DNA of 64,000 nt, taken from contig OZ242029.1 in assembly GCA_965205015.1 (NCBI GenBank), positions 288,001-352,000 of the forward strand, written 5' to 3'. The position numbers and the translations under genes are program-made. The first letter of the stretch is position 1. Every line of letters begins with the position of its first letter. Shown here in pieces: positions 7,135 to 31,109 of the stretch. This stretch comes from Candidatus Poribacteria bacterium. GTDB lineage: Bacteria; Poribacteria; WGA-4E; WGA-3G. Under the pieces are notes generated by a model. The model did not search any database, had not been told where the DNA came from, and saw nothing but the letters and a program-made list of their open reading frames with translations.

Positions 7135-7163
7135 CTTGACAAAAAAAGCAGATCGTATAAAAT
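7135..7163 (+). promoter_or_regulatory. Sigma70-type promoter
   Basis: TTGACA-17-TAAAAT upstream of the Ldh_2 pair. Confidence 0.55.
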
Positions 7164-7180
7164 AGGGTATATATTTATGA

Positions 7181-7364
7181 AGGGCGACGCTACGGAAACC
7201 AACGCTAATTACCAAACCCACCCCAACGAACCGCAAGGAAAATTAAGAAATGGAAAAATAGAATGTCCAAAAATCGCAAGCCCGTAATGAAATGGAGGGC
7301 GACTCTACGGAAATTACCTTGAACGACTAACCCACCTCAACGAACCGCAAGGAAAATTAAAAAT
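7181..7364 (+). repeat. Two tandem copies of a dispersed leader element (AACCCACCTCA[A/C]CGAACCGCAAGGAAAATTAAAAA-ATG)
   Basis: Copies end at ATG 7250 (MEK-stop) and ATG 7365; further copies near 8529, 16256, 21525-21616, 28097 and 29721. Confidence 0.85.
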
Positions 7365-8441
7365 ATGGAAAAAACGCATCTACTTCAGGCACCACACCTT
7401 CACGCAATCGCACGCAACATCTTCGTCGCCGCCGGTGCCTCGCGGCACATCGCAGAAGATGTCTCCGAAATCCTTGTCAACGCCAACCTCGCGGGTCACG
7501 ACTCACACGGCGTGCTACGTGTCCCAGCGTATCTACGCGGTATCGATGCCGGACAATTGGACCCCACTGCGGAACCCAAAATCCTCGCAGAAACCCCGAA
7601 TACCCTACGCGTTGACGGACAACGCGGCTTCGGACACTACGTCTCACGCTGGTCCATCAGTAAAGCCATAGAGAAGGCAAAAACCGCCGTCTCCTGCTCC
7701 GTCAGCATCAGCAACACCGGACATATCGGACGTTTGGGTGAGTACGCAGAGGCAGCAGCGAAAGCCGGATGTATCGGACTTATCAGCGTCGGGTCAGGCG
7801 GTAAAGGCGGGGGACCGACAGTCCCTTATGGCGGTGCACAAGGTACTTTCAGCACGAACCCAATCGCTTTGGGCGTGCCGACTGGCGACGACAGCCCCTT
7901 TATCGTTGACTACGCAACGAGCATGGTTGCCGAAGGGAAGATACAGGTCGCCCGGAGCAAAGGCATCGATTTACCAGAGGGCTGCATTCTCGATAAAAAC
8001 GGGAGGCCGAGCGTCAAGCCTGCTGACTTCTACGACGGTGGAGCACTTCTCGCATTCGGGAAACACAAAGGGTATGCACTCGCTATGTTCACCTGTCTCC
8101 TCGGCGGATTAGCGGGAACATTTGACACAGAAAGTGGTAGGATGGGCGGCACTTTCATGCAAGCCATAGATGTCAACGCCTTTACACCGGTTGAGAAATA
8201 CCAGAACGGCGTACGCGCCTTCTTAGATGGCATCAAATCCACACCGCCAGCACAAGGCTTCGACGAAGTACTCGTCCCCGGGGACTTTGAATACCGATTC
8301 CGCACACAGCGGTTAGTAGAAGGCGTTGAAATACCTGATACCATCTACAATCAACTTCAAGAATGCGCAGACAAACTCGGAATTTCCATCGGCGAAGACA
8401 CTATTGAGGCAGACGACAAGGCACACTACAGTCCGATTTAG
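7365..8441 (+). CDS. Ldh_2 family (malate/L-lactate/ureidoglycolate/DpkA-type) oxidoreductase, paralog 1
   Basis: GHDSHGV, GHIGRLGEY, STNPIA, HKGYAL. Confidence 0.9.
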   Translation: MEKTHLLQAPHLHAIARNIFVAAGASRHIAEDVSEILVNANLAGHDSHGVLRVPAYLRGIDAGQLDPTAEPKILAETPNTLRVDGQRGFGHYVSRWSISKAIEKAKTAVSCSVSISNTGHIGRLGEYAEAAAKAGCIGLISVGSGGKGGGPTVPYGGAQGTFSTNPIALGVPTGDDSPFIVDYATSMVAEGKIQVARSKGIDLPEGCILDKNGRPSVKPADFYDGGALLAFGKHKGYALAMFTCLLGGLAGTFDTESGRMGGTFMQAIDVNAFTPVEKYQNGVRAFLDGIKSTPPAQGFDEVLVPGDFEYRFRTQRLVEGVEIPDTIYNQLQECADKLGISIGEDTIEADDKAHYSPI

Positions 8442-8466
8442 AAATGGCAGTCAGCGGTCAGCAGAG

Positions 8467-8520
8467 AGAATGGAAGAATGGAAGACGGGGCACCCAACCT
8501 TCCAGCCTTCCGTCCTTCCA
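8467..8520. repeat. GGAAG/CTTCC imperfect palindromic intergenic repeat
   Basis: GAATGGAAGAATGGAAG...CTTCCAGCCTTCCGTCCTTCCA; related copies at about 27001-27029 and 47074-47142. Confidence 0.6.
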
Positions 8521-8548
8521 ACCAAACGCCGCAAGGAAAATTAAAAAA

Positions 8549-9595
8549 ATGAAGAGGCACATATTTGAAGCCGCACACCTTCAGGCATTCACGAATAATC
8601 TATTTGTAGCGGCAGGCACACCACAGCACATCGCCGATAACGTCGCCGAGATTCTCATAAAAGCGAACCTCGCGGGACACGATTCGCACGGCGTGCTTCG
8701 GATTCCCTCCTACCTTGATGGCATTGAGGGCGGCGGTATCCGTCCCGATGCCGAACCCGATGTGCTACAGGAAACCGACAATACGCTCCATATCGATGGT
8801 GGGAACGGCTTCGGACACTATACCGCCCGCTACGCGATCCGACGCGCAATCGAAAAATCGAAAACCGCGCGGACCTGTTTCGCAACGCTCACTCGGACGG
8901 GACATATCGGTAGAGTCGGCGAATACGCCCAAGAAGCCGCTGAATCCGGGTATATCGGCATTATCACCGTCGGGGGCGGTTCAAAAGGGGGCGGACGTAT
9001 CCTCCCGTTTGGGGGTGCTGTTGGCGCACTCGGCACAAACCCCATTGCTATCGGTATCCCGACAGGCGATGACACGCCGTTCCTCATCGACTTCGCGACC
9101 AGTATGATCGCGAACGGTAAAACCTACGTCGCCGACAGTGAAAATCGAGATTTGCTGGAGGGATGTGTTGTTGACAAACACGGAAATCCCACTGTCAAAA
9201 CCGCTGAATACCGTGATGGCGGACATCTTCTCGCTTTTGGAAGGCACAAAGGCTACGCGCTTTCCCTCTTTGTCGCACTGATTGGTGGATTGGGCGGCGC
9301 ATTCAATACTGAAACTGGACAGATGGGAGGGCTCCACATGCAGGTGATCGATGTCAATGCCTTTACACCCCTTGAAGAATATCAAAAAGGGGTGCGTGCG
9401 TTTTTAGACACAATCAAGGCGACACCGCCTGCCTCCGGGTTCGATGAGGTGTTAGTCCCTGGGGATTTTGAAGCAAATACCCGAGCACACCGCCTCGCAA
9501 ACGGGATTGATGTTCCCGATACCATCTACCAGCAACTTCGCGAGTGTGCCGAAAAATGGAATGTCTCCCTTCCAGAGGAATCTCGTTTGCCCTAA
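8549..9595 (+). CDS. Ldh_2 family oxidoreductase, paralog 2
   Basis: Same motifs as 7365-8441; start at ATG 8549 behind the leader repeat. Confidence 0.9.
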   Translation: MKRHIFEAAHLQAFTNNLFVAAGTPQHIADNVAEILIKANLAGHDSHGVLRIPSYLDGIEGGGIRPDAEPDVLQETDNTLHIDGGNGFGHYTARYAIRRAIEKSKTARTCFATLTRTGHIGRVGEYAQEAAESGYIGIITVGGGSKGGGRILPFGGAVGALGTNPIAIGIPTGDDTPFLIDFATSMIANGKTYVADSENRDLLEGCVVDKHGNPTVKTAEYRDGGHLLAFGRHKGYALSLFVALIGGLGGAFNTETGQMGGLHMQVIDVNAFTPLEEYQKGVRAFLDTIKATPPASGFDEVLVPGDFEANTRAHRLANGIDVPDTIYQQLRECAEKWNVSLPEESRLP

Positions 9596-9708
9596 TCCCC
9601 GCTTTGAAGTATTTCTCCGAGTACCCCAAGGAACAATAGGATTACACCAATGTCAATAGCACCCACACGCTAAAGCGTGGGGCTTGCGCTTCATAGCAGT
9701 TCGCCTTC

Positions 9709-10596
9709 ATGAAAAAGGTAATAACGCTTACAATCCTAATCGGGATCCTCGCCATTTCTATGCTCGGTTGTGGCACAGATACCGAGGATACAGTCGAGGA
9801 AATTGCCGAAGACAAGGTTCCCGTGTCGATAGGGATGGTCCTGATTCCCGAAGGTCCCTTTGAAATGGGTAGCACTGCGGACCACGCAAACATCGACGAA
9901 CAGCCTGTCCATACCGTCTATGTGGACGCGTTTTACATGGATAAACGCGAAGTAACGGTTCGCGCCTATCGGCACTTTGTGGAGGAAACGGGACATCGCG
10001 CCCCCGACTGGGAGCAGGTCGCTCTCTATTCCCCCACCGATGACCACCCTATCGTCTTTGTGAGTTGGCACGATGCGATGGCGTATGCGAAGTGGGCAGG
10101 CAAACGGTTGCCAACGGAAGCGGAATGGGAGAAAGCCGCACGCGGAAATCTGGTAGGAAAGATATATCCATGGGGGGACACAGCACCGGCAGCAGCTGCA
10201 AAAGTAATGTGCAACTTCGCTGATAAGAACCTCACACATTATTGGTGGGCGGATAAAGAGGTCGACGATGGTTATGTATACACTGCCCCTGTGGGGAGGT
10301 ATCTCCCGAACAAATATGGTCTGTCCGATATGACAGGGAACGTTTCGGAGTGGTGTCTTGACGAATATGATGAAGACTTCTATGAAATCTCACCAAGCAC
10401 AAACCCTGTTTCAGGGTCAGACACTGTCACAGAGATAAGCAATACCTTTGCAAGTGTTCAATCGTATCGAGTGCTACGGGGTGGCTCTTGGCTGGTTAAT
10501 GCGTTGGGGGTGCGGAACGCCGTTCGGTTCACTCTCAATCCATCCAGCACGAGCAGCAGTGTCGGTTTTCGTTGTGCGAAGGACTTGGATTTGTAA
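9709..10596 (+). CDS. Formylglycine-generating enzyme (SUMF1/FGE-sulfatase) domain lipoprotein
   Basis: Lipobox MLGC; RLPTEAEWEKAARG, DMTGNVSEW, RGGSW, GFRC. Confidence 0.9.
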   Translation: MKKVITLTILIGILAISMLGCGTDTEDTVEEIAEDKVPVSIGMVLIPEGPFEMGSTADHANIDEQPVHTVYVDAFYMDKREVTVRAYRHFVEETGHRAPDWEQVALYSPTDDHPIVFVSWHDAMAYAKWAGKRLPTEAEWEKAARGNLVGKIYPWGDTAPAAAAKVMCNFADKNLTHYWWADKEVDDGYVYTAPVGRYLPNKYGLSDMTGNVSEWCLDEYDEDFYEISPSTNPVSGSDTVTEISNTFASVQSYRVLRGGSWLVNALGVRNAVRFTLNPSSTSSSVGFRCAKDLDL

Positions 10597-10666
10597 AATA
10601 AGTGGATTTCATTTTGATCAAACGTGTTTTTCAAACATATCCGTCGCAGGAGGTCTCCGATTGAAC

Positions 10667-13468
10667 ATGCGAGTCAAAGGTTTCTTTTTCGTACTCACTG
10701 TTTTGCTCGGTTTTTTGCCATCGGGTTTTGCTCAAGACGCTCGTCCAATAGTGCAGATCGTCTACTTCCGCCCAAGCGATATGCCACTCCCTCCCGGCGT
10801 AGATGCAGAAATCGATGCCATGATCAAGAAAGCACAGCGGTTCTTCGCGGACAAGATGGAAGACCACGGATTCGGCAGAAAAACTTTTCAGTTTGAAGCG
10901 GACGCAAACGGAAATGTTGTCGTGCATCATGTAAATGGGAAATTGCCCATCGCAGATTATGAGAATAGTAATTACGCCTGGGTCCCAGAGATTAACGAAC
11001 AGATTCACATACGCCATGAGCGTATTCCCGTCTATATGATAGAGAGAGGGCAAAAAAGAATAACAGTGGGTAGAGGATGCGGTGAAGGCAGCAGATCTGG
11101 AGCACATATCTACTGTTGGGGGTGGACTGTCGTTGCTCATGAGCTCGGGCATGCCTTTGGCTTACCACATGATTTCCGCACCAACACCTATATCATGTCT
11201 TATGGGATAACCAAACTTAGCTTGTCGAAATGCTCCGCTGAATGGTTGAATGTCCACCCATTTTTTAACGTAGGTCAAGCTGCTATGAGTGAACGCTCAA
11301 CGATTAAAATGCTTCCACCAACCCTCGCTTCTCTTCCCAATAATATTCATCTCCGCTTTGAGATAACGGATCCCGATGGGCTCCATCAAGCAAAACTTAT
11401 CTTACCGACTGATAATGAGGCCCTGCTCGATTGTAAACCTTTGAGTGGCGAAAGCAGTATTATTGAATTTGACACAACCGGACTGAGACCGACAGATAAG
11501 TGGATAAATCTTAGCGTTATTGATATACGTGGAGACATCACGTATCAAGGTTATTCAATTGATATTACCGCCCTGCTGCCGCCTCCCGAAGTTGTGTTAA
11601 TACCTGATAAAAATTTAGCAAAACAAGTCCGGACTTGGCTTCGTCTGGCGCCAGAGGAAACACTCACTACACACGCGATGCTAAATTTAAAGGTTCTTGC
11701 TGCAAACGATAGTCAGATAAGAGATATCACAGGCCTTGAGCATGCTTACACACTAAGGACGTTGAATCTTCGCGGCAACCCTGCCTTGGATATATCTGAT
11801 GTATCTGCGCTTTCTGGGCTTACACAACTGACGTATCTGGACTTTGACGAGAACGGGATTTCAGATATATCCGCACTTTCAGAATTTACACAACTCAGAA
11901 CGCTGTATCTTAGGCAGAACAGGATTTCGGATATATCTGCGCTTTCCGGGCTTACACAACTGACTTATCTAGAGCTTGACTACAACAATATCTCGGATAT
12001 ATCTGTGCTTTCCAGGCTTACACAACTGATAGGGCTATCGGTTGGTTCCAATTCTATCTCGGATATATCCGCGCTTTCCGGGCTTACACAACTGACAAGC
12101 TTGTGGCTTCCCAGCAATTCTATCTCGGATATATCCGCGCTTTCTGGGCTTATACGATTAGATGAGCTTTTCCTTAGGAGTAACAGGATTTCGGATATAT
12201 CTGCGCTTTCTGAGCTTACACAACTGACTTATCTGGTGCTTGACAGCAACAATATCTCGGATATATCTGCGCTTTCTGGGCTTACACAACTGGCCACTCT
12301 ATGGATTGAGGACAACAATATTTCGGATATATCTGCACTTTCTGGGTTGACCCAGCTCGCTTCTTTGAATCTCGGGAACAACAATATCTCTGATGTGTCC
12401 CCCTTGCGGGCTTTAAACCTAACACGGACGGAGTCGGACCTCGGGGGGTTGTATCTTCACGGCAACCCACTGAGTTTCGCCTCCATCAACACGCACATCC
12501 CTGCCCTGCAGGCGAAAGGCATTGCGGTAACGTTTGACAACGTCGCACATCCGGCATTCGTGAAAATCTCAGATGATACCCAAGAAGGTGCTGCCGGGGC
12601 ACTATTAACTTCTCCGTTTGTCGTGGAAATACAGGATGAAAAAGGACAGCCAATGAAAGATGTGCCTGTCACGTTCACTATCCACGCCGGCGGTGGGATT
12701 CTTAGTCCCACTACCACCAAAACCGATGCTGAGGGCAAGGCACGCACATTCTTGACACTCGGTTGGATCCCCGGTCCCTCCATTGTCCGGGCAACTGCTG
12801 ATGGGATTCCGTCATACGTGCAGTTTACCGCTATGGCCACCGTGCTAACTGATCGCCTCGCTACAGATGTTAACGGCGATAGTGCCGTTGATGTGGAAGA
12901 CCTGCTCCTCGTTGCCGCCAGTGTCGGCACACCCTTTGTCCCCGATGTGATGCCTAATACAGATGTCAACGGCGATGGAATCGTCAATCATCAAGATGTG
13001 CAATTAGTCTTAGCTGCATTGGAGAACGCACCCGCTGCACCGTCTCTGGATACCCACTGGACTGCGACGAGTTTACAGCGGTGGATCGCAGAAGCGAAGC
13101 AGCGTAACATAGGTGATGCCATCCTTCAGCGCGGCATTGCGGTGTTGGAGCGGCTGCTTGTGGACCTATTGCCGAAGGAGATAGCACTTCTCGCCAACTA
13201 CCCGAATCCGTTCAATCCAGAGACATGGATACCGTATCAGTTGTCAGAACCAACGGATGTGACACTGCACATCTATGCAGTAGATGGGCAGGTCGTGCGG
13301 CAGTTGACGTTGGGGCATCAACCTGCCGGAATGTATCATAGCAAAAGTCGCGCGGCGTATTGGGATGGACGGAATGAGCAAGGTGAACACGTGGCGAGTG
13401 GCGTCTATTTCTATACGTTGTCCGCTGGCAATTTCAGCGCAACGCGGAAGATGTTAATACGGAAGTAG
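10667..13468 (+). CDS. Secreted metzincin metalloprotease with internalin-like LRRs, Ig-like (Big_1), dockerin and FlgD/T9SS-like C-terminal domain
   Basis: Signal peptide; HELGHAFGLPH plus YIMSY Met-turn; 22-aa ISDISALSGLTQL repeats; DVNGDG; NYPNPFNPETWIPY...TRKMLIRK. Confidence 0.85.
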   Translation: MRVKGFFFVLTVLLGFLPSGFAQDARPIVQIVYFRPSDMPLPPGVDAEIDAMIKKAQRFFADKMEDHGFGRKTFQFEADANGNVVVHHVNGKLPIADYENSNYAWVPEINEQIHIRHERIPVYMIERGQKRITVGRGCGEGSRSGAHIYCWGWTVVAHELGHAFGLPHDFRTNTYIMSYGITKLSLSKCSAEWLNVHPFFNVGQAAMSERSTIKMLPPTLASLPNNIHLRFEITDPDGLHQAKLILPTDNEALLDCKPLSGESSIIEFDTTGLRPTDKWINLSVIDIRGDITYQGYSIDITALLPPPEVVLIPDKNLAKQVRTWLRLAPEETLTTHAMLNLKVLAANDSQIRDITGLEHAYTLRTLNLRGNPALDISDVSALSGLTQLTYLDFDENGISDISALSEFTQLRTLYLRQNRISDISALSGLTQLTYLELDYNNISDISVLSRLTQLIGLSVGSNSISDISALSGLTQLTSLWLPSNSISDISALSGLIRLDELFLRSNRISDISALSELTQLTYLVLDSNNISDISALSGLTQLATLWIEDNNISDISALSGLTQLASLNLGNNNISDVSPLRALNLTRTESDLGGLYLHGNPLSFASINTHIPALQAKGIAVTFDNVAHPAFVKISDDTQEGAAGALLTSPFVVEIQDEKGQPMKDVPVTFTIHAGGGILSPTTTKTDAEGKARTFLTLGWIPGPSIVRATADGIPSYVQFTAMATVLTDRLATDVNGDSAVDVEDLLLVAASVGTPFVPDVMPNTDVNGDGIVNHQDVQLVLAALENAPAAPSLDTHWTATSLQRWIAEAKQRNIGDAILQRGIAVLERLLVDLLPKEIALLANYPNPFNPETWIPYQLSEPTDVTLHIYAVDGQVVRQLTLGHQPAGMYHSKSRAAYWDGRNEQGEHVASGVYFYTLSAGNFSATRKMLIRK
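11790..12400 (+). repeat. 66-bp tandem coding repeats (LRR)
   Basis: Recurrent tcggatatatctgcgctttctgggcttacacaactg, about ten units. Confidence 0.85.
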
Positions 13469-13499
13469 GAGGCACACCCCTTGAAGGGATACTACCGAA

Positions 13500-13596
13500 G
13501 AACGCGCAATGAATTGCGCTACTACAAACGAAAGACTGTCCTATTCTTAAAATCCGCGTTCATCTGTGTCATCTGTGTAATCCGTGATTCAGGCAA
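13500..13596. repeat. GTAG-type REP hairpin (minus strand) followed by a 9-bp-periodic intergenic repeat
   Basis: gaacgcgcaatgaattgcgctactac; aatccgcgttcatctgtgtcatctgtgtaatccgtgattcaggcaa, whose reverse complement resembles 63065-63111. Confidence 0.6.
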
Positions 13597-13678
13597 CAAT
13601 TATGAGTTCCCTTACCTTAAAATAGTGCTATGGCAAACGGCATATGCTTGCTACTTTCAAAAAATAAGGAAGTGTTGA

Positions 13679-16180: not shown

Positions 16181-16189
16181 GAATTATGC

Positions 16190-16218
16190 TTGACATCGTA
16201 CTCCGAGCGTGTTATACT
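16190..16218 (+). promoter_or_regulatory. Sigma70 promoter
   Basis: TTGACA-17-TATACT. Confidence 0.7.
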
Positions 16219-16277
16219 TAACTTCGTAAAGTCAACTTTGTAACTCCCGTCGTTTAACCGCAAGGAATAATTAAAAA

Positions 16278-17069: not shown

Positions 17070-17177
17070 GGGTTATCAGTTGTCAGTTATCGGTTAAGAG
17101 AGGGTTTGTGGAATTGACGCAATATACAACCGCCATACATTTTAACTGATACCCCTTAGACGGAGGCATGATGAACG

Positions 17178-17903: not shown

Positions 17904-17935
17904 CAGACAATATTTGGAGGTTGAATCGAAGAATT

Positions 17936-19552: not shown

Positions 19553-19615
19553 GGGCTGGGTTACCCAACCCCTACCCCGCAAACAAAGGAAGGCGCGCTT
19601 TTTAAGCGCGCTTTT
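19549..19615 (+). repeat. GTAG-type REP hairpin followed by a terminator-like hairpin
   Basis: gtaggggctgggttacccaacccctac; aggcgcgctttttaagcgcgctttt. Confidence 0.6.
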
Positions 19616-19622
19616 CTCTTAC

Positions 19623-21506: not shown

Positions 21507-21570
21507 AGATTGAACAGTTCCCGAAACCGTAGCGCGTAATGAAAGAGAGAGCGGATACACGGAGAGACAC

Positions 21571-23514
21571 TTGAAACCCCTAACCCACCTCACCGAACCG
21601 CAAGGTAAAATTAAAACACGCATTACAGGGCGCTCGCTTCTCTTAGGGATCCTACTCATCCCAGTCAATGTCTATTGGATGACCCTTGTTGAGGTGAAGT
21701 ATTACTCCCTTGACGGTTCGTGCCTCCCCTTATTTATCCAACCTGTTTTCATCATGTTCGTCTGTGTTGTCGCTAACCTTGTATTGAAACGCATTGCCCC
21801 GCGACAGATGCTACAACAAGGAGAACTGCTCGCCATCTATATTATGGTCGCCATTTCCTGCACGTTTGCCGGACACGATACGATGCAAAATATGTTCGGC
21901 AGTATCGCGCACCCTTTCCGGTTCGCGACTGAAGAAAACGAGTGGCAGACCCTCTTTTTCCGGTATCTACCGGCGTGGCTCACTATTTCTGACGCGCAAA
22001 GTTTGCAGGGGTTTTACGAGGGAGAATCCACCTTCTATACGAACCATAACTTTACAGTTTGGACAAAACCGTTGCTGTTCTGGGGACTCTTTTTCCTGAT
22101 TATGATGTTTATGATGCTCTGCATCAACACACTCGTCCGGAAGCGGTGGGCAGAACAGGAAAAATTGGCGTATCCGATTATTCAACTTCCGCTCCGACTT
22201 TCGGAAGATGGCGGCATCAGTCTCCTCAAAAATCGGATGATGTGGATCGGATTCAGCATCGCTGTCGTCATCGGCGTGATTAACGGGGTTCACTACCTCT
22301 TTCCACAGTTCCCGGAGATCCCCTATATCAAACGGACAGCCGTCTTCCGAGACATCTTCACCGACCGTCCATGGAACGTTATTCGTGGCACTCGAATTTC
22401 CGTTTATCCCTTTGCAGTTGGCTTGGCGTTTTTCCTGCCGCTGGACCTTTCGTTTTCGTGCTGGTTTTTCTTTGTCGTTCGCTTAGCGGAATTCGTCATC
22501 GGGGCGGCACTCGGCACGCGCTATTTCCCTGCCCTCAACGAACAAGCCTACGGCGCATGGATCGCGCTCTTCCTACTCGCTGTTTGGGTCACACGACGTC
22601 ACCTGACTGAAGTCCTGAAAAAGGTGCTTGGGTTCAAATCGCGTCTCGATGATACAGACGAACCGATGCCGTACCGTGCCGCCTTCCTCGGAATACTCGG
22701 TTCGCTCGTCGCCCTCGGTGTCTTTTCCTCTATAGCCGGGATGTCTTTATGGGTGGCAGGCATTTTCTTTGGTATCTATTTCCTGCTCTCCTTTGCAATT
22801 ACCCGGGTCCGTGCTGAACTCGGCACACCTCATGAAATTTACTACGTCAATCCGCACGACATGCTGGCGACAGTCGGCGGCACTCGGCAGTTTGATACAA
22901 GCAGCCTCACCATCATGTCCCTTTTCTACTGGTTCAATCGCGGTTACCGGAACCACCCGATGCCGAATCAGATTGAGGCGTTTAAACTCGCCGAATCAAC
23001 GGGAATGGGTAACCGACGTTTATGGATGGCGATGCTAATCGCGATTATCGTCGGCATTCTGGTAACCTTCTGGGCAAACCTTGACATCACCTTCCGAAAC
23101 GGTGCGGTTGCGAAAGCAGGCGGGTTCAAGGGGTGGGTCGGCAGGGAATCGTTCAGTCGGCTGCAACGCTGGCTACATAACCCAACGGAACCGAACGTGA
23201 TCGGCATCGGTTTCATGGGCATTGGCGCGCTCCTGACGTTCGTGATGATGTATATGCGGATGCATTTCCTGTGGTGGCCCTTCCACCCAGCGGGCTATGC
23301 CCTCGCGATTAGTTTCGCCATGGATTACTTCTGGTTCGCCTTCTTCGTGGCATGGTTCCTAAAGTTGATGATTTTACGGCACGGCGGTTTACGGTTGCAT
23401 CGTCAAGTCGCACCGCTCTTTTTAGGACTCATCTTAGGCGATTACGTCATCGGTAGCATCTGGGCAATTATTGGACCTTCATTCGGTTTACGCACCTACA
23501 AAATCTTTATTTGA
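21571..23514 (+). CDS. DUF6785/DUF6784-type polytopic membrane protein (putative peptide transporter), paralog 1
   Basis: Many TM helices; WAEQEKLAYPI, RVRAELG, WWPFHPAGY, FLGLILGD; start uncertain. Confidence 0.7.
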   Translation: MKPLTHLTEPQGKIKTRITGRSLLLGILLIPVNVYWMTLVEVKYYSLDGSCLPLFIQPVFIMFVCVVANLVLKRIAPRQMLQQGELLAIYIMVAISCTFAGHDTMQNMFGSIAHPFRFATEENEWQTLFFRYLPAWLTISDAQSLQGFYEGESTFYTNHNFTVWTKPLLFWGLFFLIMMFMMLCINTLVRKRWAEQEKLAYPIIQLPLRLSEDGGISLLKNRMMWIGFSIAVVIGVINGVHYLFPQFPEIPYIKRTAVFRDIFTDRPWNVIRGTRISVYPFAVGLAFFLPLDLSFSCWFFFVVRLAEFVIGAALGTRYFPALNEQAYGAWIALFLLAVWVTRRHLTEVLKKVLGFKSRLDDTDEPMPYRAAFLGILGSLVALGVFSSIAGMSLWVAGIFFGIYFLLSFAITRVRAELGTPHEIYYVNPHDMLATVGGTRQFDTSSLTIMSLFYWFNRGYRNHPMPNQIEAFKLAESTGMGNRRLWMAMLIAIIVGILVTFWANLDITFRNGAVAKAGGFKGWVGRESFSRLQRWLHNPTEPNVIGIGFMGIGALLTFVMMYMRMHFLWWPFHPAGYALAISFAMDYFWFAFFVAWFLKLMILRHGGLRLHRQVAPLFLGLILGDYVIGSIWAIIGPSFGLRTYKIFI

Positions 23515-23525
23515 GGGCGAAAAAT

Positions 23526-24548: not shown

Positions 24549-24715
24549 ATTTCAAACCGTTGACCTGACCATAGAAGTTTTTTCTTCAAATTCTAAAAAA
24601 TTCTGAAATTTACCCTAAACTTTTCCAGTTTCATCTGTATAATTAATATAGGGGGCGTTTTACCTATCGTGAAAAACATTCATGTTTCAACGCCTGAAAC
24701 AAAAAGGGGGAACTC

Positions 24716-25069
24716 ATGCTAACTCTAATGCGCTGGAAAGGTGGTATCCCGATTGTGGAACCGAATCAAAAAATCATAGGAACCGCATCATCACAGTTGC
24801 GGGAAAGACTCGTTTCACAGATAGATGCTTCTCATACATCGTGCATTATCATCAATTTCGCTCGCGTTGACAAAATAGACAGTTCGGGGCTCGGGGCTTT
24901 GGTAAGTGCATATATTGTGGCGAAGCAAAAAAAGGGACGTATTGGGATCATCAATGTCGGGAGAAACATCAAAAGTCTGATTGTCCAAAGTTGGCTCATT
25001 AATACCTTTGAGCATTTTGAGGATGAGGACACTGCCGTGGCAGCATTGTCGGTCCCCACTAAGTTTTGA
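24716..25069 (+). CDS. STAS-domain anti-sigma factor antagonist
   Basis: IDSSGLGALV motif, 117 aa. Confidence 0.85.
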   Translation: MLTLMRWKGGIPIVEPNQKIIGTASSQLRERLVSQIDASHTSCIIINFARVDKIDSSGLGALVSAYIVAKQKKGRIGIINVGRNIKSLIVQSWLINTFEHFEDEDTAVAALSVPTKF

Positions 25070-25147
25070 AGGGAAAGCAGCCGGCTGGCAGTTTACTATG
25101 GTGAATTATCAAAATATGTGGACATCCCGTAGGGGTGCCCCTTGTGG

Positions 25148-25241
25148 GTACCCCCAAATTCACCGTTCATGTACCCTATAAATTCACCGTTCATGTACCC
25201 TATAAATTCACCGTTCACGTACCCTTAAATTCACCGTTCAC
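25148..25241 (+). repeat. 24-bp tandem repeat, about 4 units (AAATTCACCGTTCATGTACCCTAT)
   Basis: Direct reading; abuts a GTAG REP hairpin at 25129-25154. Confidence 0.9.
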
Positions 25242-25255
25242 AATGTCTAAGTAAT

Positions 25256-25348
25256 TAGAACTTACGCAATTTCTATGGAAGACCTACGGCCCACACGCCG
25301 CTGGCGAAGTTTCAAACCTCGCCAGCAAAGGATGCTGCGTAAGTCCTG
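25256..25348. mobile_element. 93-bp MITE, copy A
   Basis: TIRs TAGAACTTACGCA / TGCGTAAGTCCTG; 5-bp TSD GTAAT; homologous to 63390-63482 (inverted). Confidence 0.85.
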
Positions 25349-25393
25349 GTAATTCTAAAATCCACCATAAATACCCTCACCTCAAGATAAGTA

Positions 25394-25422
25394 TTGACTT
25401 CGCGCTGTAAAAATGGTAAAAT
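25394..25422 (+). promoter_or_regulatory. Sigma70 promoter with extended -10
   Basis: TTGACT-17-(TGG)TAAAAT. Confidence 0.55.
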
Positions 25423-25507
25423 AAATATCAGATGTAGTGCCCCACGTTTTATAGATTTTGATAACTGTGTAGAAATCTGAATCTTTCCGGAAGTGGAGGA
25501 CAAATAG

Positions 25508-26158
25508 ATGGCTTTGAGATGTCAATTGGGCACTGTAAAATGTCCGTCGTATAAACATCAGGGCATTTTTCAACCAGATAATGAAACGGTGAAATCCTTT
25601 TTGCCGGATTTGAACCACTGTGCAACGTGCACAGCGGCTGCGCCGCCGAAACGCCCGGATCTCCAAGACGACCTACTACAAATTGCCGCACTGGCACTTC
25701 TTGAAAAGGGACCAGGGTTCGATCCTACCCATGAAAGTGGTGCGCAGTTCGGGAGTTTCATTCGTCCGCATATCTGTGGCGCTTTGACGAACGCGAAAGG
25801 CAAAGAACTCACCCATAGCAATCGTGAGTGCCTTGATTTTAATGGAAACGTATCCCCGTCCAAGGAAGCAGCGACTGAAATCAATCAGGATATTAACTGG
25901 CTGTGGGAGGTGCCAGACCCGGACGCTGCCTTTGAGGATAAACTCATCCGAGACCTCAGTTTTGCCGCTGCGTTGCCGGCACTCCTGAAAATCCTGACCC
26001 CCCGTGAACGAGAAATTTTCGGATGCATTCGTGAGAATCAGCAAAATTTTGAGATCGCCGAGGTATTGAAAATTTCTGAATCGCGCGTGAGTCAATTGGT
26101 GAAGCAAGTGACACTGAAATTGGCGGGGGCAGCACGAAAACTGGGTTTAGCAAACTAA
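25508..26158 (+). CDS. Sigma-70 family sigma factor (FliA-like regions 2 and 4) with Cys-rich N-terminus
   Basis: DDLLQIAALAL...FDP...F..FIRPHI; LTPREREI, EIAEVLKISESRVSQL. Confidence 0.75.
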   Translation: MALRCQLGTVKCPSYKHQGIFQPDNETVKSFLPDLNHCATCTAAAPPKRPDLQDDLLQIAALALLEKGPGFDPTHESGAQFGSFIRPHICGALTNAKGKELTHSNRECLDFNGNVSPSKEAATEINQDINWLWEVPDPDAAFEDKLIRDLSFAAALPALLKILTPREREIFGCIRENQQNFEIAEVLKISESRVSQLVKQVTLKLAGAARKLGLAN

Positions 26159-26315
26159 CTATTTTTCGGAGGCAGTATCTTGAAAATAAGCATATTTCAG
26201 ACATAAAGGCGATTGTTGACCCCGGTAGTGATACTGGAGCGCAATCGCCTTTTCTCTTGAATGTGCCCCTTAACCTTTGCCGTAGCGAGGCAATGCAGGA
26301 AATGCATCTGACAAA

Positions 26316-26978
26316 ATGGACTTGCAAGATTACCCCCTCACCAGTACCGTCATCAAATTGAAAACCGGTCGGGTCCAACTCACCCTGATAGAAGAACCCG
26401 ATTGGTTCCTTGAAAAACTCAGTCAAGAGGACCACCAAGGCAAACTCTACCTTCCTTACTGGACCTATCTCTGGGAGTCTTCAATCGGTCTCGCCCGTCA
26501 TATAGAGAAAATAGGTACGCGCCTAAAAAATGCGCATATCTTAGAAATCGGATGCGGATTCGGACTGGCAGGAATTGTCGCCTGTCAGATGGGGGCGCGC
26601 GTGGTTTTCACGGACGCAGTACAGACGGCGCTCCGCTTCGCACATCACAACGCCGAGCAGAACGGGGTCAGCCAACGTGCCGATTTCGTCCAGATGGATT
26701 GGAACACCCCCTGCTTTAACCGTCAATTTCCATATATCCTCGCCGCCGATGTCATTTACGAAGAACCCCATTGGATACCGATCCTGACGCTACTTCAAGA
26801 GTACCTCAACCAGAAGGGTGTTGCCCTCTTTTCTGAACCGCATCGCAGCAACGCGTCCGGTTTTTTTAAACTGCTGACTGACAACGGCTTCGTTTACCGA
26901 AAAACCTCCTGCCCTGTCACATTGGACAGACAAACCTCTCAAGTCGGTATCTATTCTGTACGACGTGTGAGGGCATGA
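26316..26978 (+). CDS. Class I SAM methyltransferase (Methyltransf_16, protein-lysine type)
   Basis: PYWTYLWESS, LEIGCGFG, AADVIYE. Confidence 0.85.
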   Translation: MDLQDYPLTSTVIKLKTGRVQLTLIEEPDWFLEKLSQEDHQGKLYLPYWTYLWESSIGLARHIEKIGTRLKNAHILEIGCGFGLAGIVACQMGARVVFTDAVQTALRFAHHNAEQNGVSQRADFVQMDWNTPCFNRQFPYILAADVIYEEPHWIPILTLLQEYLNQKGVALFSEPHRSNASGFFKLLTDNGFVYRKTSCPVTLDRQTSQVGIYSVRRVRA

Positions 26979-27032
26979 ATGGCATTGTCATTGTAATAGC
27001 CTCTCCAACCTTCCAATCCTCTTCTTCCATAT

Positions 27033-27081
27033 TGCCCAAAAAACAGGAAAAAACGCTCGTACTCTGCTAAAAAAATAGGCA
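27033..27081. promoter_or_regulatory. Pair of NtrC-like enhancer sites
   Basis: TGCCCAAAAAACAGGAA (27033, imperfect) and TGCTAAAAAAATAGGCA (27065, TGC-N11-GCA), 32 bp apart, upstream of a sigma54 promoter. Confidence 0.55.
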
Positions 27082-27165
27082 AAAATTCGCGCGCCATGGA
27101 CTTTTCGTTGGGTTTCCGTTTGGCAGAAGTGTGATGCACCTTAGGAAAATCAATGTTCTATACTT

Positions 27166-27182
27166 TTGGCAAGGTTTTTGCT
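27166..27182 (+). promoter_or_regulatory. Sigma54 promoter of nasT
   Basis: TTGGCAAGGTTTTTGCT (GG-N10-GC). Confidence 0.75.
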
Positions 27183-27256
27183 AATGCTATATTGAGGTTA
27201 ACATTCCTCGTTGTTTCAGCACATTTACGCGGAAAAAACTTGGGAAAGGGTGGAGA

Positions 27257-27865
27257 ATGGAAGCAGTCACCTCAACGACAAAGGGGCGAATTCTAATCAT
27301 TGATAACAATCCCGAGCGCGCACATTCGTTAATCCAGATACTGGAAGCAAGCCGCTACAAAGTCGCTGTCCCTGTGCGTCTACAGGAAGGTTTAACGGAT
27401 CAAGTTACACAGATAAAGCCAGACATCATATTGATCGGCGTTGACTTCCCGGGACAGACGATTCTCCGTTGGGTTGCAGCTCTGCACGAGAGCTACCCGT
27501 GTCCGACAGTCATGTTTTCACGTGATGAGCGATCGGAAACAATTCAGGCAGCGACGCGGGCGGGTGTCTCCGCATATGCCGTCGGGAAACTTACGGGTGC
27601 CCGAGTGAAAACCATCATTGAGGCAGCCGTCGCCCGATTCTATGAATACCGGGCATTGCAAGAAGAACTTGAAAAAACAAAAACAAACCTTGCCGAACGC
27701 AAAATCATTGAACGTGCGAAGGAAGTGGTCGCACAGCAACGCGGCTGCAACGAATCACAAGCGTATCAAATTTTGCGGAAGATGGCGATGAATCGTAGAA
27801 AACGGCTCGCAGAAATCTCACAAGATGTACTGTCTGTCGCCGATGTATTAACGAACAAATTGTAG
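27257..27865 (+). CDS. nasT: ANTAR-domain response regulator (NasT-like antiterminator)
   Basis: Pseudo-receiver plus LAERKIIERAK...AYQILRKMAMNRR ANTAR domain; precedes nitrate assimilation genes. Confidence 0.85.
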   Translation: MEAVTSTTKGRILIIDNNPERAHSLIQILEASRYKVAVPVRLQEGLTDQVTQIKPDIILIGVDFPGQTILRWVAALHESYPCPTVMFSRDERSETIQAATRAGVSAYAVGKLTGARVKTIIEAAVARFYEYRALQEELEKTKTNLAERKIIERAKEVVAQQRGCNESQAYQILRKMAMNRRKRLAEISQDVLSVADVLTNKL

Positions 27866-28031
27866 AAGTAGTGCCTGTTCAAGGGTGAACAACATATTCA
27901 CATCAGCACTCCTGATTTTCTCAGAATACGCCTGATGTGTCCCGCACTACTGTGATGATACCGATAAAATCTAACCAAAGGTGGAATGCAAAATAAAGGC
28001 AAATTGTGCCGCGATGGCATAATTTGGGTCT

Positions 28032-28092
28032 GGACACAGGTGTCCGTTCAGCTGAGCCTTATGCTCGCTGATGGATGCCTTTTTTATTTTTT
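28032..28092 (+). terminator. ANTAR target hairpin overlapping an intrinsic terminator (nirA leader attenuator)
   Basis: GGAC-ACAGGT-GTCC hexaloop (A1,G4); AGGTGTCCGTTCAGC pairs with GCTGATGGATGCCT followed by a T-tract. Confidence 0.7.
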
Positions 28093-28119
28093 ACCACCGA
28101 ACCGCAAGGAAAATGTAAA

Positions 28120-29712
28120 ATGGTGAGCCCATCAAAAAAGAAAGCGACTTCCACACGCCGAGGGATGCGTTCAGCACCAAGTTTGAAAAGCGCAACGGTT
28201 TCCAAAAAAGCAAAGTCCAAGATAAATGCTGCGGAAGCCTTGAAGCAAGAGAAAAACGGACTTGAAGTCATCAATGACATCCCGAACTATATTCGGGACG
28301 GTTGGGAATCTATTCCCCCGAACGAACGCGATCGGCTTAAGTGGGTCGGTGTTTTTTTCCGAAAGCAAACCCCTGGCGCATTCATGATGCGGCTCCGTAT
28401 GTCAAGCGGTTTTAGCAATGCCGAGCAGCTTCGCGCTATTGCTGAAATCAGCGAAGCACACGGACCCGGATTCGTCGATCTCACGACGCGCCAGCAGATC
28501 CAACTTCGAGGGTTCGCGATTGAGAATGTCCAACATATCTGGAATCGGCTTGAAGAGGTCGGTTTAGGTTCACTCCAAACGGGTTTCGACAACATTCGCG
28601 GTGTCATCGGATGTCCCGTTGCCGGGTTGACACCGAATGAACTCTTTGATGCCTCGCCTGTCGGCAGGGAATTCACAAAACTCTTTGTCGGCAATAAGGA
28701 ATTCACCGATATTCCGCGGAAGTTTAATGTTGGTATCACAGGATGCTTGGATAACTGCACGCATACCGCCTCGCAGGATATCGCCCTCACACCAGCGGTC
28801 AAAGAGATTGACGGTGAAAAAACAAACGGCTTTAATGTCGCAGTCGGTGGAAAGATGGGCTCCGGCGGCTATACGCCCGCGCAACCCCTTGACGTGTTTA
28901 TTACGCCGAAAGAAGCCTCCATTTTGTGTGCGGATATTACGTTAATTTTTCGAGATCACGGACCTCGGACAGCTCGCAATAAATCTCGCCTTGCTTTTCT
29001 GATTGCCGATTGGGGGGTAGGAAAATTCCGAGAAGAATTAGAAAGGCGTCGACACAGAAAGCAGCCGCTCCTGACTGCGGGGAAAGAGGCACGCGGTAAG
29101 AAAAAGACGGATCACACCGGTATCTTCTCACAGAAACAGCCGGGGCTCAACTACGTCGGGCTTGTTGTCCCAGTCGGACGGATTACAACGACACAACTCT
29201 CCGAGGTCGCACGGATCGCAGATGCATACGGCAACGGCGACATCCGTCTTACACAAGGACAGAATCTGATTATCACGAATGTGCCAGACGCAAAAATCGG
29301 AGACCTCACCGCAGAACCGCTCCTACAGGAACTCCGCTATGATCCCTCGGAAGTTATGCGCGGCATGGTGAGTTGCACCGGCATCGACTATTGCCACTTC
29401 TCGCTGATTGAAACCAAAGAACGCGCCATGGAAGCGATCCGACATCTGGAGGCGAAACTCGGCAATACCAAACCGCTTACGATACACTGGTCGGGATGTC
29501 CAAACGGATGTGGCAATCACGCCGCCGCAGACATCGGACTCCTCGGCAAGAAAACCAAAATTGATGGGGTCGTCACCGATGCGGTGGACGTATTCCTCAA
29601 GGGGGATGCTGGAGCAAATCCGAAAATCGCACCGAAGGTCTTGGAGAATATACCCTGCGATGAACTACCGCAAGTGCTTGAGGGACTCGTTCCTTACCTT
29701 TCACGTAGATAG
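28120..29712 (+). CDS. nirA: Ferredoxin-nitrite reductase
   Basis: FMMRLR, LTTRQQIQLR, PRKFN, CTGIDYC, SGCPNGC siroheme/4Fe-4S ligands. Confidence 0.9.
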   Translation: MVSPSKKKATSTRRGMRSAPSLKSATVSKKAKSKINAAEALKQEKNGLEVINDIPNYIRDGWESIPPNERDRLKWVGVFFRKQTPGAFMMRLRMSSGFSNAEQLRAIAEISEAHGPGFVDLTTRQQIQLRGFAIENVQHIWNRLEEVGLGSLQTGFDNIRGVIGCPVAGLTPNELFDASPVGREFTKLFVGNKEFTDIPRKFNVGITGCLDNCTHTASQDIALTPAVKEIDGEKTNGFNVAVGGKMGSGGYTPAQPLDVFITPKEASILCADITLIFRDHGPRTARNKSRLAFLIADWGVGKFREELERRRHRKQPLLTAGKEARGKKKTDHTGIFSQKQPGLNYVGLVVPVGRITTTQLSEVARIADAYGNGDIRLTQGQNLIITNVPDAKIGDLTAEPLLQELRYDPSEVMRGMVSCTGIDYCHFSLIETKERAMEAIRHLEAKLGNTKPLTIHWSGCPNGCGNHAAADIGLLGKKTKIDGVVTDAVDVFLKGDAGANPKIAPKVLENIPCDELPQVLEGLVPYLSRR

Positions 29713-29756
29713 AAACCTCCAACCTACCTCACCGAACCGCAAGGAAAATTAAAAAT

Positions 29757-31109
29757 ATGGATATAAAAAATAAAGCGACACAAATAAATCTTTTCAGTCT
29801 AAAAACCGTTCAGATGCGCACCTTCCATACCACATGGTTTGCGTTCTTTCTCGCCTTTTTCGGGTGGTTCGGCATTGCACCGCTCATGGCGATTGTACGC
29901 GAAGATCTGATGCTAACAAAAGCACAAATTGGCAACACAATTATCGCCTCCGTCGCAATCACAGTTATCGTGCGAATCCTAATCGGACCGCTGTGTGACC
30001 GGATCGGTTCTCGAAAGGCGTACACATGGCTGCTGATTCTCGGTTCACTGCCCGTTATGGGTATCGGTTTCGCCCAAAATTATGAGACGTTTCTGCTATT
30101 CCGATTGGCAATCGGTGCCATTGGTGCCTCGTTTGTCATCACGCAGTACCATACATCGACAATGTTTGCCCCGAATTGTGTCGGTACAGCGAATGCAACA
30201 ACAGCAGGCTGGGGGAACCTCGGTGGCGGTGTCACGCAGATGATAATGCCTCTCATCTTTACGGCTGTTCTCAGTTTCGGTGTGGACAAATTCCTCGGAT
30301 GGCGGTTGGCAATGATTGTTCCTGGGATCGCCCTGTTTATCACCGGGTTCGCGTATTATTTCCTTACCCAAGACGCCCCCGATGGAAACTATAAGGAACT
30401 TCGTGACCGCGGGGACCTCGAACCGGCGAAAGGCAAAGGCATGGAGTCTTTCATGCTGGCGATCAAAGACTATCGCGTCTGGGCACTTTTTGTCATTTAC
30501 GCCGCCTGTTTCGGGGTAGAACTCACCATCAACAACGTCGCCGCCCTCTACTATCACGACCAATTCCAATTAGATGTCAAAACCGCTGGACTCATCGCAG
30601 GATTGTTCGGTCTGATGAATATCTTTGCGCGAACCGTCGGCGGCGCTTTTTCCGACTTCTTTGCGAAAAAGATGGGACTCCGCGGGCGTGTCATGTTCCT
30701 CTTCGTTGTCCTGTTCGGTGAAGGGATCATGCTGATGCTGTTCTCACAGATGGCAGTCCTTCTGCTCGCCGTTGGAACGATGATTGTGTTTAGTCTCTTT
30801 GTGCAGATGTCTGAAGGGGCAACTTATGGGATCGTCCCATTCATCAATCGAAAGGCGTTAGGAGCCGTCGCGGGTATTGTGGGTGCGGGTGGAAACGCCG
30901 GCGCCGTCGCCGCGGGTTTCCTGTTCCGCTCTGAGAGCATCACGATGCAGCAAGGTCTGTTATATCTCGGCATAATGGTCGCGGTCGCCTCGGTTGCCAC
31001 AGCGTTGGTAAGATTTTCACCCGCAGTCCAAGACGCAGAAAAGAAAGCATTTAATGCAGCACTCGCAGAAAGACAACGCCTGAAAGCGGAAGCAGGTGCG
31101 TTATCCTAA
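29757..31109 (+). CDS. narK: MFS nitrate/nitrite transporter (NarK/NRT2)
   Basis: AGWGNLGGG nitrate signature, FARTVGG, GAGGNAG. Confidence 0.9.
   Translation: MDIKNKATQINLFSLKTVQMRTFHTTWFAFFLAFFGWFGIAPLMAIVREDLMLTKAQIGNTIIASVAITVIVRILIGPLCDRIGSRKAYTWLLILGSLPVMGIGFAQNYETFLLFRLAIGAIGASFVITQYHTSTMFAPNCVGTANATTAGWGNLGGGVTQMIMPLIFTAVLSFGVDKFLGWRLAMIVPGIALFITGFAYYFLTQDAPDGNYKELRDRGDLEPAKGKGMESFMLAIKDYRVWALFVIYAACFGVELTINNVAALYYHDQFQLDVKTAGLIAGLFGLMNIFARTVGGAFSDFFAKKMGLRGRVMFLFVVLFGEGIMLMLFSQMAVLLLAVGTMIVFSLFVQMSEGATYGIVPFINRKALGAVAGIVGAGGNAGAVAAGFLFRSESITMQQGLLYLGIMVAVASVATALVRFSPAVQDAEKKAFNAALAERQRLKAEAGALS

Follow-up and report, generated by a model that had tools for sequence, protein, structure and literature searches.

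A dispersed leader element of about 92 nucleotides at gene starts in a clade of Poribacteria, a probable portable translation-initiation region

Why should unrelated genes of one bacterial chromosome begin behind almost the same stretch of sequence? The question is raised by a window of 64,000 nt (the whole stretch of DNA analysed here, positions 288,001 to 352,000 of contig OZ242029.1, assembly GCA_965205015.1, from a Candidatus Poribacteria bacterium; coordinates below are those of the window). In this window, an earlier reading of the letters alone (the sequence-only reading) had reported a motif that occurs seven times on the + strand, six times directly before an ATG and once as the first codons of a gene encoding a DUF6785 protein, and had proposed either a mobile repeat domesticated as a portable ribosome-binding cassette or a shared cis-regulatory RNA. 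As described below, the motif is the 3' end of a dispersed leader element of about 92 nt that belongs to a clade of Poribacteria and is probably a portable translation-initiation region, old and slowly turning over.

The core of the motif, ACCGCAAGGAAAATTAAAAA, has seven matches in the window at no more than 3 mismatches, all of them on the + strand (starts 7230, 7344, 8528, 16257, 21597, 28101 and 29736). Dinucleotide-preserving shuffles of the window give a mean of 0.01 core matches, and 0/100 shuffles reach seven. Six of the copies are followed by an ATG (7250, 7365, 8549, 16278, 28120 and 29757), the first of which opens only a 3-codon open reading frame (ORF; ATGGAAAAATAG, 7250-7261). The seventh copy (21597) lies inside the ORF 21571-23514, which encodes a DUF6785/DUF6784 protein and whose Pfam DUF6785 match begins at residue 20. 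The remaining genes of the window start behind ordinary sites of the AGGAG or GGAGG type, at normal spacing, which indicates that the core motif is not the general start context of this organism, and no leader copy was found between 33 and 64 kb of the window.

A covariance model of the element (R1) detects eight copies over the window, again all on the + strand, and an nhmmer model was used to place the partial ones. Two copies are full length: 7274-7364 (85.1 bits), which comprises the hairpin P1, the linker, the C/A-rich stretch and the core and ends at ATG 7365 of the first of two Ldh_2 genes (7365-8441, Pfam), and 21526-21617 (84.8 bits), which is fused to the DUF6785 gene. The body of about 90 bp that the sequence-only reading had recognized in these two is also largely present in copy 1 (7159-7250, core 7230-7249; 63.6 bits, nhmmer model 11-91). 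This copy is 5'-truncated, native 5' untranslated region (UTR) sequence running into the 3' arm of P1; the orthologous site of a related genome, G008, is without it. Four copies are 3' fragments according to nhmmer. The one at 29713-29756 (about 45 nt, 5'-truncated; model 49-91; R1 41.3 bits, partial, over 29667-29756) occupies the entire nirA-narK spacer and ends at ATG 29757 of an MFS/NarK-like gene (narK), and the 3' half at 16231-16277 (model 46-91; 29.4 bits over 16181-16277) ends at ATG 16278 of an SDR gene. The core-only fragment 8522-8548 (model 68-91; 21.1 bits over 8462-8548) ends at ATG 8549, the true start of the second Ldh_2 gene, instead of the longest-ORF start 8444 (the Pfam match begins at residue 43 of the 8444 ORF). 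The last fragment, 28095-28122, comprises about 29 nt of the 3' end plus ATG 28120 (model 66-91; 20.4 bits over 28033-28121) and stands directly before the native GTG of nirA (Pfam NIR_SIR). In the eighth copy, 4944-5036, which is degenerate (25.8 bits, E 0.0073), the core has diverged and the hairpin GCAAGC...GCTTGC resembles P1. This copy ends at ATG 5037 of a gene of the MR_MLE enolase superfamily (Pfam) and is found at that start in 4/4 compared genomes.

The anatomy of the element was deduced from 186 copies of related genomes anchored on the core, of which the 81 full-length ones were aligned. The unit of about 92 nt consists, in this order, of P1, the linker, a variable stretch, a C/A-rich block, the octamer CCGCAAGG, a spacer and ATG. 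Its 5' end is often (C)GTAG; GTAG or GTAAG precedes P1 in 42/81 copies, the others having CAAG, ATAG, GCAG etc. P1 is made of a stem GCCY.../...RGGC and a small inner helix, and has several loop families (e.g. GTAATGAAATGGA, GAAACGAAGTGGA and AACAACGGC). It is followed by a linker of the type CGGATATACGG, by about 20 variable nt and then by a C/A-rich, G-poor block, AAACCNNCCTNACCGAA, upstream of the octamer. The latter is nearly invariant among the aligned copies and overlaps the Shine-Dalgarno (SD) sequence AAGGA; an A/U-rich spacer, AAAATTAAAAA, and one variable base separate it from the ATG.

P1 covaries, with compensatory changes in six of the eight pairs predicted by RNAalifold (e.g. CG 45 and UA 31 at one pair), and the duplexes formed by its own arms (mean -7.66 kcal/mol) are more stable than those of cross-paired arms (-5.98 kcal/mol, p = 1e-7). 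A second helix proposed by eye, P2, between the linker and the CCTNACCG block, found no support in the same comparison (own -5.75 vs cross -5.33 kcal/mol, p = 0.26, and no consistent column pairs). The two predicted C-G pairs of the mini-hairpin CC-GCAA-GG never vary in the 81 aligned copies, and covariation is therefore uninformative for it, neither for nor against. The predicted folding of the whole element does not exceed that of shuffled sequences (z = +1.4, -0.1, 0.0 and +0.9). A conserved upstream ORF, reaching from an ATG or GTG of the P1 loop to the TAA of the core, was rejected, as just 5/72 candidate starts end there and 37 stop earlier. Terminal inverted repeats are absent: the best complementarity between the first and the last 20 nt is at most 4 nt in 81/81 copies. 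In some variants, a GT-rich repeat of the type GGGGTTTTTGCTTGGGTGTTTC is inserted between P1 and the linker. As this insertion is frequent, the elements are mosaics. The small GT-rich repeat (GGGGTGTTTTTGCTTGGGTGTTTC type) also occurs alone, in either orientation or in tandem (e.g. in L106, L109, L021 and L023, and upstream of the first Ldh_2 gene in G008 and in another related genome, G007).

How many such elements are there, and where do they occur? Five genomes carry 52-232 core copies each within 2 mismatches, on both strands, vs 0-2 for a reversed-pattern control; R1 matches number at least 150 in each of three of them, 83 in the fourth and 59 in the fifth. In a sample of the phylum, 66/150 genomes have a match and 84/150 have none among those searched, which indicates that the element belongs to a clade of Poribacteria and not to the whole phylum. 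The exact 20-mer is found in more than 115 stretches of species-representative genomes; among the 80 matches listed, 75 are from Poribacteria, four from two other metagenome-assembled genomes (MAGs) and one from a Lachnospiraceae MAG. The Lachnospiraceae match (L044), like a variant match in a viral contig (L239), is without the element body and was taken as chance. Contigs assembled from the short reads of three public DNA runs end where copies lie. This shows no more than that the element is repeated; in these contigs, the consensus of the sequence behind the core begins with ATG. The Rfam check, in which a known family would have counted against a new leader, gave 0 matches at gathering score over the window (Rfam 15) and only five matches in 7000-30000 when E up to 5 was allowed; these are at chance level, and none falls on a copy. 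A search of the full-text literature on Poribacteria found nothing on this leader element among the papers listed.

The element is also carried by another viral contig, IMGVR_UViG_3300012932_000188 (L237, L238; 33.9 kb, IMG/VR), a phage contig that encodes the large terminase subunit, the portal, a head protease, a major head protein and a neck protein and whose host is presumably a poribacterium. Seven full-length copies are present in the 22.3 kb examined. At least six of them end directly at a start codon (five ATG, one GTG), and the seventh has an ATG a few bases downstream, within a longer listed ORF.

The placement of the copies relative to genes is not random. Among 191 core matches (115 loci plus the window), 111 are followed, at a distance of 0-4 nt from the 20-mer, by an ATG that begins an ORF of 60 aa or more, and this ATG is at exactly +2 in 87 of them. 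As the 115 loci were chosen by the motif, the window and three syntenic regions (286 kb) were also examined as a motif-independent sample. In this sample, 18/39 nhmmer hits end between -2 and +1 nt from the ATG of a same-strand ORF of at least 250 aa; since the four regions are orthologous, these 18 starts are not independent. The genes located downstream are functionally diverse, without a common pathway or theme: Pfam was run on 80/105 downstream ORFs, with at least one family in 79, and the families include PhyH dioxygenases, sulfatases, xylose-isomerase-like TIM barrels, GFO/IDH/MocA oxidoreductases, MR_MLE enzymes and ABC-2 permeases as well as housekeeping proteins (HisRS, AspRS, GatB, amidase, SecA, NADH dehydrogenase subunits, TrpE/TrpG, DapB, CarA and ECF sigma factors).

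The sequence-only reading had called for a comparison of orthologues with and without the element, and such pairs exist. The genomes G006, G007 and G008 (84-90% DNA identity to the window) were compared with the window at eight sites. The start of the second Ldh_2 gene is without the element in G006, which has a native AGGAGG followed by GTG AAG AGG. The same start is preceded by the core and reads ATG AAG AGG in the window, and it carries another variant with ATG AAA AGG in G007. In G008, it carries a 5'-truncated copy whose P1 loop gives the TGA stop of the upstream gene and which is followed by ATG GAA AGG. In the same way, nirA starts with AAGGAG and GTG in G008 and G006, and the element and its ATG stand directly before this same GTG in the window and in G007. 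The narK start is empty in G007 and carries three different subtypes in the window, G008 and G006, and the SDR start (16278) is empty in G008 and G006, bears the 3' half in the window and a different, short-form element in G007. An IscS-like gene (915) is filled in G007 only, where ATGCAA has become ATGGAA, and a GT2 gene (17178) has the short form in G008 only. The nasA gene is empty in the window, where its true start is ATG 31262 (MENSTGKAVCPYCG...) and not the longest-ORF TTG 31133; it is filled in G007, and in G006 and G008 the junction lies 12 nt inside the coding sequence (CDS) and element sequence is translated.

The most drastic change concerns the DUF6785 gene. Among the window and 80 orthologous loci examined, the element is present in the window, L126, L127 and L129 only; in the other loci, the native ATG lies about 39 nt before the junction. 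The insertion replaced the -10 region of the native promoter, the 5' UTR, the ATG and about nine codons. The first codons of the gene are thus supplied by the repeat, as the sequence-only reading had it, and all four carriers keep open an in-frame TTG (21571) that lies within the repeat. Over the sites compared, junctions fall between the position immediately before the ATG and about +30 of the CDS. Insertions replace native sequence and do not merely interrupt it, and no target duplication was seen at the eight sites. The element brings its own start codon: GTG has changed to ATG at the second Ldh_2 gene, and an ATG has been placed before the native GTG of nirA. The portable ribosome-binding cassette of the sequence-only reading fits these data. 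The word mobile can be kept for gain, loss and replacement over evolutionary time, and not for a mobilizing enzyme or mechanism, as neither was found (see below).

The short-form element mentioned above consists of a P1-type hairpin, about 21 nt (CCAGGAGCCCATAGTTAAAAA) and ATG. It has 10-46 copies per genome in five genomes (vs 0-1 for the control) and shares some starts with the main element. It was seen in G006, G007 and G008 at starts orthologous to 7365, 16278 and 17178 of the window, and upstream of DUF6785 genes in L130, L133, L138, L145, L148, L152 and L168. In four DUF6785 loci, it replaced the native ATG, an in-frame ATG being located in the hairpin arm.

The copies are old. Twenty high-scoring copies of one genome (G003) have a mean identity of 75% (maximum 86%, 0/190 pairs at 90% or more) but have the conserved blocks in common. 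In the set of 81 aligned copies, 11/3,240 pairs reach at least 90%: nine consist of tandem neighbors, of a segmental duplicate or of orthologues, and in the remaining two the flanks are unlike or only partly alike. Recent bursts were rejected in the absence of near-identical dispersed copies. Orthologous copies are well conserved: those of the first Ldh_2 gene in G008 and G007 are 93-96% identical vs 85-86% for the CDS and 61-69% for third codon positions, and the DUF6785 copy is 88% identical vs 90% for the CDS and 73% for third positions. Taken together, the divergence of paralogues and the conservation of orthologues indicate an old, diversified family, under purifying selection and with a slow turnover.

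Truncation is one-sided, 5' ends being variable and 3' ends almost always kept. Over 1.70 Mb of loci, 154 of 253 hits start at model position 6 or before and 99 later, and 239 reach position 88 or beyond; among the 99 late-starting hits, the 33 that begin at positions 21-35 include copies that the GT-rich insertion has split and that are not truly truncated. A model of the 5' part alone gives 158 hits, which are followed by the core in 154 cases and not in three, one more running off the locus. Tandem arrays (period 111-137 nt, up to about 10 units) have as unit the element plus the first ~25 nt of the downstream gene and are ordinary tandem amplifications.

What could such an element do at a gene start? 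The 3' end of the host 16S rRNA is GGATCACCTCCTTTCT, with the anti-SD sequence CCUCCUUUCU. Within the core, AAGGA alone can pair with this tail, in keeping with the SD overlap proposed by the sequence-only reading, and 11 nt separate it from the ATG. The resemblance to 16S helix 27 that had been offered as speculation turns out to be a true identity: in three Poribacteria genomes (G001-G003; loci L116-L118), helix 27 reads CCGCAAGGTTAAAAC, in which an 8-mer identical to CCGCAAGG is again followed by TTAAAA. The regions from -45 to +21 of 105 element-bearing starts are predicted to fold much more weakly (-5.1 kcal/mol) than those of 186 other SD-bearing starts (-8.7 kcal/mol; Mann-Whitney p = 9e-18), taken as the first ATG of any ORF of 200 aa or more that has an SD-like word before it. 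The G content is 13% between -45 and -21 of the element-bearing starts. GAA is the second codon of 15/105 element-bearing genes vs 9/186 controls, an excess that fits an element-borne ATGGAA. We conclude that the 3' module would constitute a low-structure, SD-bearing, A/U-rich initiation region that could be placed before any gene.

Combined with the data on turnover, the following model can be drawn for a portable translation-initiation region. The cassette would replace the native ribosome-binding site (RBS), and sometimes the first codons, of any gene located behind its landing site. In the mRNA, the C/A-rich, G-poor stretch is predicted to stay unfolded, AAGGA within CCGCAAGG would pair with the anti-SD sequence of the 16S rRNA, and the 11-nt A/U-rich spacer would lead to what is usually the element's own ATG, sometimes with GAA or AAA. 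The 5' module, i.e. P1 and the GGATATACGG-type linker, is maintained by selection. Its probable place of action is the mRNA, where it may affect stability or processing or bind a factor. Ribosome binding does not account for the selective maintenance of P1, the linker and CCGC, which suggests an added role in the RNA.

Several points weigh against this model. In the motif-independent sample, 21/39 copies are located away from the starts of long ORFs; they include upstream members of tandem or nested duplications, copies that have lost the ATG and inverted copies at gene 3' ends, one of which, in G006 and G007, lies directly after an ornithine cyclodeaminase-like gene and supplies its TAA stop. 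The SD sequence is just 5 nt long (AAGGA), and its aligned spacing is close to the upper limit of what is usual. Ribosome binding alone leaves the invariance of CCGC, the linker and P1 unexplained. Some of the control starts used for the fold comparison are possibly wrong starts, and transcription of the element, as well as raised or standardized translation, is inferred from sequence. Finally, tests of Y1, RAYT, IS200 and RVT_1 genes yielded no mechanism of spread.

The conservation outside the SD sequence could instead reflect a shared post-transcriptional regulon, in which a trans-acting protein or RNA recognizes P1, the linker and the GNRA hairpin of CCGCAAGG, the role in ribosome binding being secondary; this explanation, which can coexist with a portable initiation region, seems rather unlikely to account for the family. 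The covarying P1, the GGATATACGG-type linker, CCTNACCGAACCGC and the invariant CCGCAAGG are conserved in paralogues only about 75% identical although they are needless for rRNA pairing, orthologous copies are more conserved than synonymous sites, and a like argument has been made for the extra conserved positions of the mycobacteriophage SAS in the available text of PMC3203893. Inverted orphan copies would, moreover, yield transcripts complementary to every leader. However, the downstream genes share no pathway or theme, and orthologues of close genomes carry the element, lack it or keep its last 25-45 nt without P1 and the linker. A candidate factor was not identified: CsrA (PF02599), the best-known factor for leaders containing GGA, was found in 0/5 Poribacteria genomes, control genomes being matched. 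For the cis-regulatory RNA suggested by the sequence-only reading, the covarying hairpin and the conserved blocks speak in favor, and the lack of a common function of the downstream genes speaks against.

Two other explanations were considered. In the one that we regard as quite improbable, the element is a selfish repeat of the MITE, REP or PATE type without benefit to the host, which is found at starts owing to an insertion preference for A-rich sequence or to loss elsewhere. About half of the copies of the motif-independent sample are indeed orphans, inverted copies and tandem arrays exist, GTAG or GTAAG precedes P1 in about half of the full-length copies, as in REP sequences, the element is a mosaic fused with a second small GT-rich repeat, and Y1 transposase genes are present. 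However, a selfish repeat fits poorly with the lack of terminal inverted repeats and target duplications, with Y1 flanks devoid of P1-type hairpins (one locus excepted), with the lack of young copies, with orthologous copies that evolve more slowly than synonymous sites and with 3' ends kept in 154/157 assessable hits of the 5'-only model. Still less probable, in our opinion, is a unit that carries a promoter of another type and drives both transcription and translation, as Neisseria REP2 and Borrelia IR do. The layout of the element matches that of REP2 in the available text of PMC3184786 (no terminal inverted repeats, a 5' stem-loop, RBS and ATG at the 3' end, directly upstream of ORFs), and the DUF6785 gene has been kept although the insertion removed its native -10 region. 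Against it, sigma-70-type promoters inside the element were sought and rejected at three loci (copies within 7159-7364, the DUF6785 copy and about 10 tandem copies of L235). A good promoter is instead located upstream of the element at the first Ldh_2 gene: a near-consensus sigma-70-like site on the + strand (7136-7163; TTGACA, 16 nt, TAAAAT; 11/12 consensus matches), mostly upstream of copy 1, overlaps its 5' end (7159) by 5 nt, so that copies 1 and 2 would both lie in the 5' UTR, and the same promoter precedes the single copy of G008. A TTGACA/TATACT promoter-like pair is also found upstream of copy 16231-16277. Furthermore, many copies are located between genes of apparent operons (from the first to the second Ldh_2 gene, from nirA to narK), and many functional copies are without the 5' half. 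The portable translation-initiation region thus stays the probable explanation.

How the element spreads was addressed by examining candidate enzymes. Y1 transposase genes give 6-15 matches per genome. Mobilization of the Y1/RAYT/IS200 kind was rejected, the flanks of 12 weaker-scoring, possibly RAYT-like, Y1 genes being without P1-type hairpins; among six IS200/IS605 Y1 loci, P1-type loops occur in L122 only, which also has the one strong R1 match. Because the 5' ends are ragged and the 3' end is A-rich, LINE-like spread by reverse transcriptase was considered as well. Matches to RVT_1 occur in 77/150 sampled genomes; this route was rejected, as 21/47 genomes with saturating element counts have no RVT_1 (hand count), among them the chromosome-level G001, G003, G006, G007 and G008. 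The imprecise junctions, the replacement of native sequence and the ragged 5' ends speak for recombination or copy-choice plus selection rather than for a classical transposase. That the same starts were occupied repeatedly and independently would allow for a process aimed at start regions. A transposase-independent copying that homes on start codons and writes the 3' end of the leader, with or without the ATG, over the native RBS, plus a variable length of the upstream part of the element, is unlikely. It would explain the three subtypes at the narK start of sister genomes, the two unrelated leader families at the same SDR and Ldh_2 starts, the kept 3' ends with ragged 5' ends and the colonization of gene starts in a phage of the same hosts. 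CCGCAAGG, identical to the hairpin of the helix 27 tetraloop of 16S rRNA, could be part of a dedicated recognition step.

Which known elements resemble this family? Neisseria REP2 is described in the available text of PMC3184786 as a repeat of 120-150 bp, with about 23-26 copies per genome, two stem-loops near its 5' end, its own promoter, an RBS and an ATG. According to the same text, REP2 and IR-A/IR-B of Borrelia plasmids have no terminal inverted repeats and directly precede unrelated ORFs, with which they fuse; where they come from and how they spread is unknown. The likeness with the Poribacteria element, judged by layout and not by sequence, resides in a multicopy intergenic repeat without terminal inverted repeats that carries an RBS and an ATG at its 3' end before unrelated ORFs. 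Compared with REP2 as described there, the Poribacteria element is shorter (about 92 nt), has one covarying hairpin and no detected sigma-70-type promoter, and is present in tens to hundreds of copies per genome, often as 5'-truncated fragments.

The start-associated sequences (SAS, with extended forms, ESAS) of Cluster K mycobacteriophages are, in the available text of PMC3203893, SD-containing repeats of 13 bp located 3-7 bp before start codons, with 11-19 copies in one orientation, an over-representation of ATG, conserved positions beyond the 16S pairing and an unknown function. About half have an upstream inverted repeat whose arms do not covary, and they are confined to phages and nearly absent from the hosts. 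The likeness (an SD-containing repeat before starts, conserved beyond rRNA pairing) is functional only, the sequences being unrelated when the consensus is compared by eye. Unlike the SAS of that text, the Poribacteria unit measures about 92 nt, is chromosomal in hundreds of copies plus one phage contig, and has a covarying hairpin. The 'mobile promoters' of the available text of PMC3575422 are highly similar upstream regions before unrelated genes, defined as promoters by sequence similarity, whereas the part shared here is a translation-initiation region inside which no promoter was detected. Going by these descriptions, the closest analogues are Neisseria REP2 and mycobacteriophage SAS/ESAS, the copy number in Poribacteria being ten times higher or more.

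With REP/BIME and Correia-type MITE, the element shares the features of small, dispersed, hairpin-bearing extragenic repeats that are mosaics and can alter the ends of neighboring genes, and a GTAG-like word 5' of the hairpin in about half of the copies recalls REP sequences. However, REPs are mostly located after genes and flank their RAYT gene, and no repeat-flanked RAYT (Y1) gene was seen here; compared with MITE, terminal inverted repeats and target duplications are lacking. Membership in REP/RAYT or MITE thus failed on their defining features. To our knowledge, none of the REP, BIME or MITE repeats is defined by a fixed distance to a start codon.

Other features of the window were noted in passing. 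The spacer before the core of the second Ldh_2 gene (8459-8527) contains short repeats resembling GGAAGA/CCTTCC, not found in three related genomes, and weak Rfam matches of the miRNA type at this place are at chance level. A different repeat of about 50 nt (9651-9700) is located just upstream of an FGE-sulfatase gene (ATG 9709); three related genomes each contain many copies of it at 88-96% identity. In the region 27257-28100, an ANTAR response-regulator gene (27257-27865) directly precedes nirA-narK-nasA. In the spacer behind it, a GGACACAGGTGTCC hairpin is found together with a stem, GGCAT...ATGCC, that leads into a T-run; this looks like a nitrate-type antitermination leader that ends just before the element core. 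The region 34000-46000 has a low GC content (42-45% vs ~50% elsewhere) and minus-strand genes including an ORF of 1116 aa. Synteny with G008 and G007 resumes only at 46091, and neither has a match to 34000-46000 at the threshold used.

Several consequences follow for the genomes that carry the element. In annotation, start codons call for caution: true starts are located directly after the core, as for the second Ldh_2 gene and NasA, and some N-termini are encoded by the repeat (DUF6785, and NasA of two genomes). Orthologues that have a native RBS, the leader or a different leader provide a natural experiment on the effect of the cassette on translation, and the element, being low in structure, is a candidate for a standard leader in expression work. 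The spread of REP2-like and SAS-like elements has, in the available texts of PMC3184786 and PMC3203893, been unanswered since their description, and the Poribacteria family offers many more events to study. If the element is indeed a portable translation-initiation region, it would far exceed in size every known family of start-supplying repeats, serving tens to hundreds of starts per genome in many species of an uncultivated phylum of sponge symbionts.

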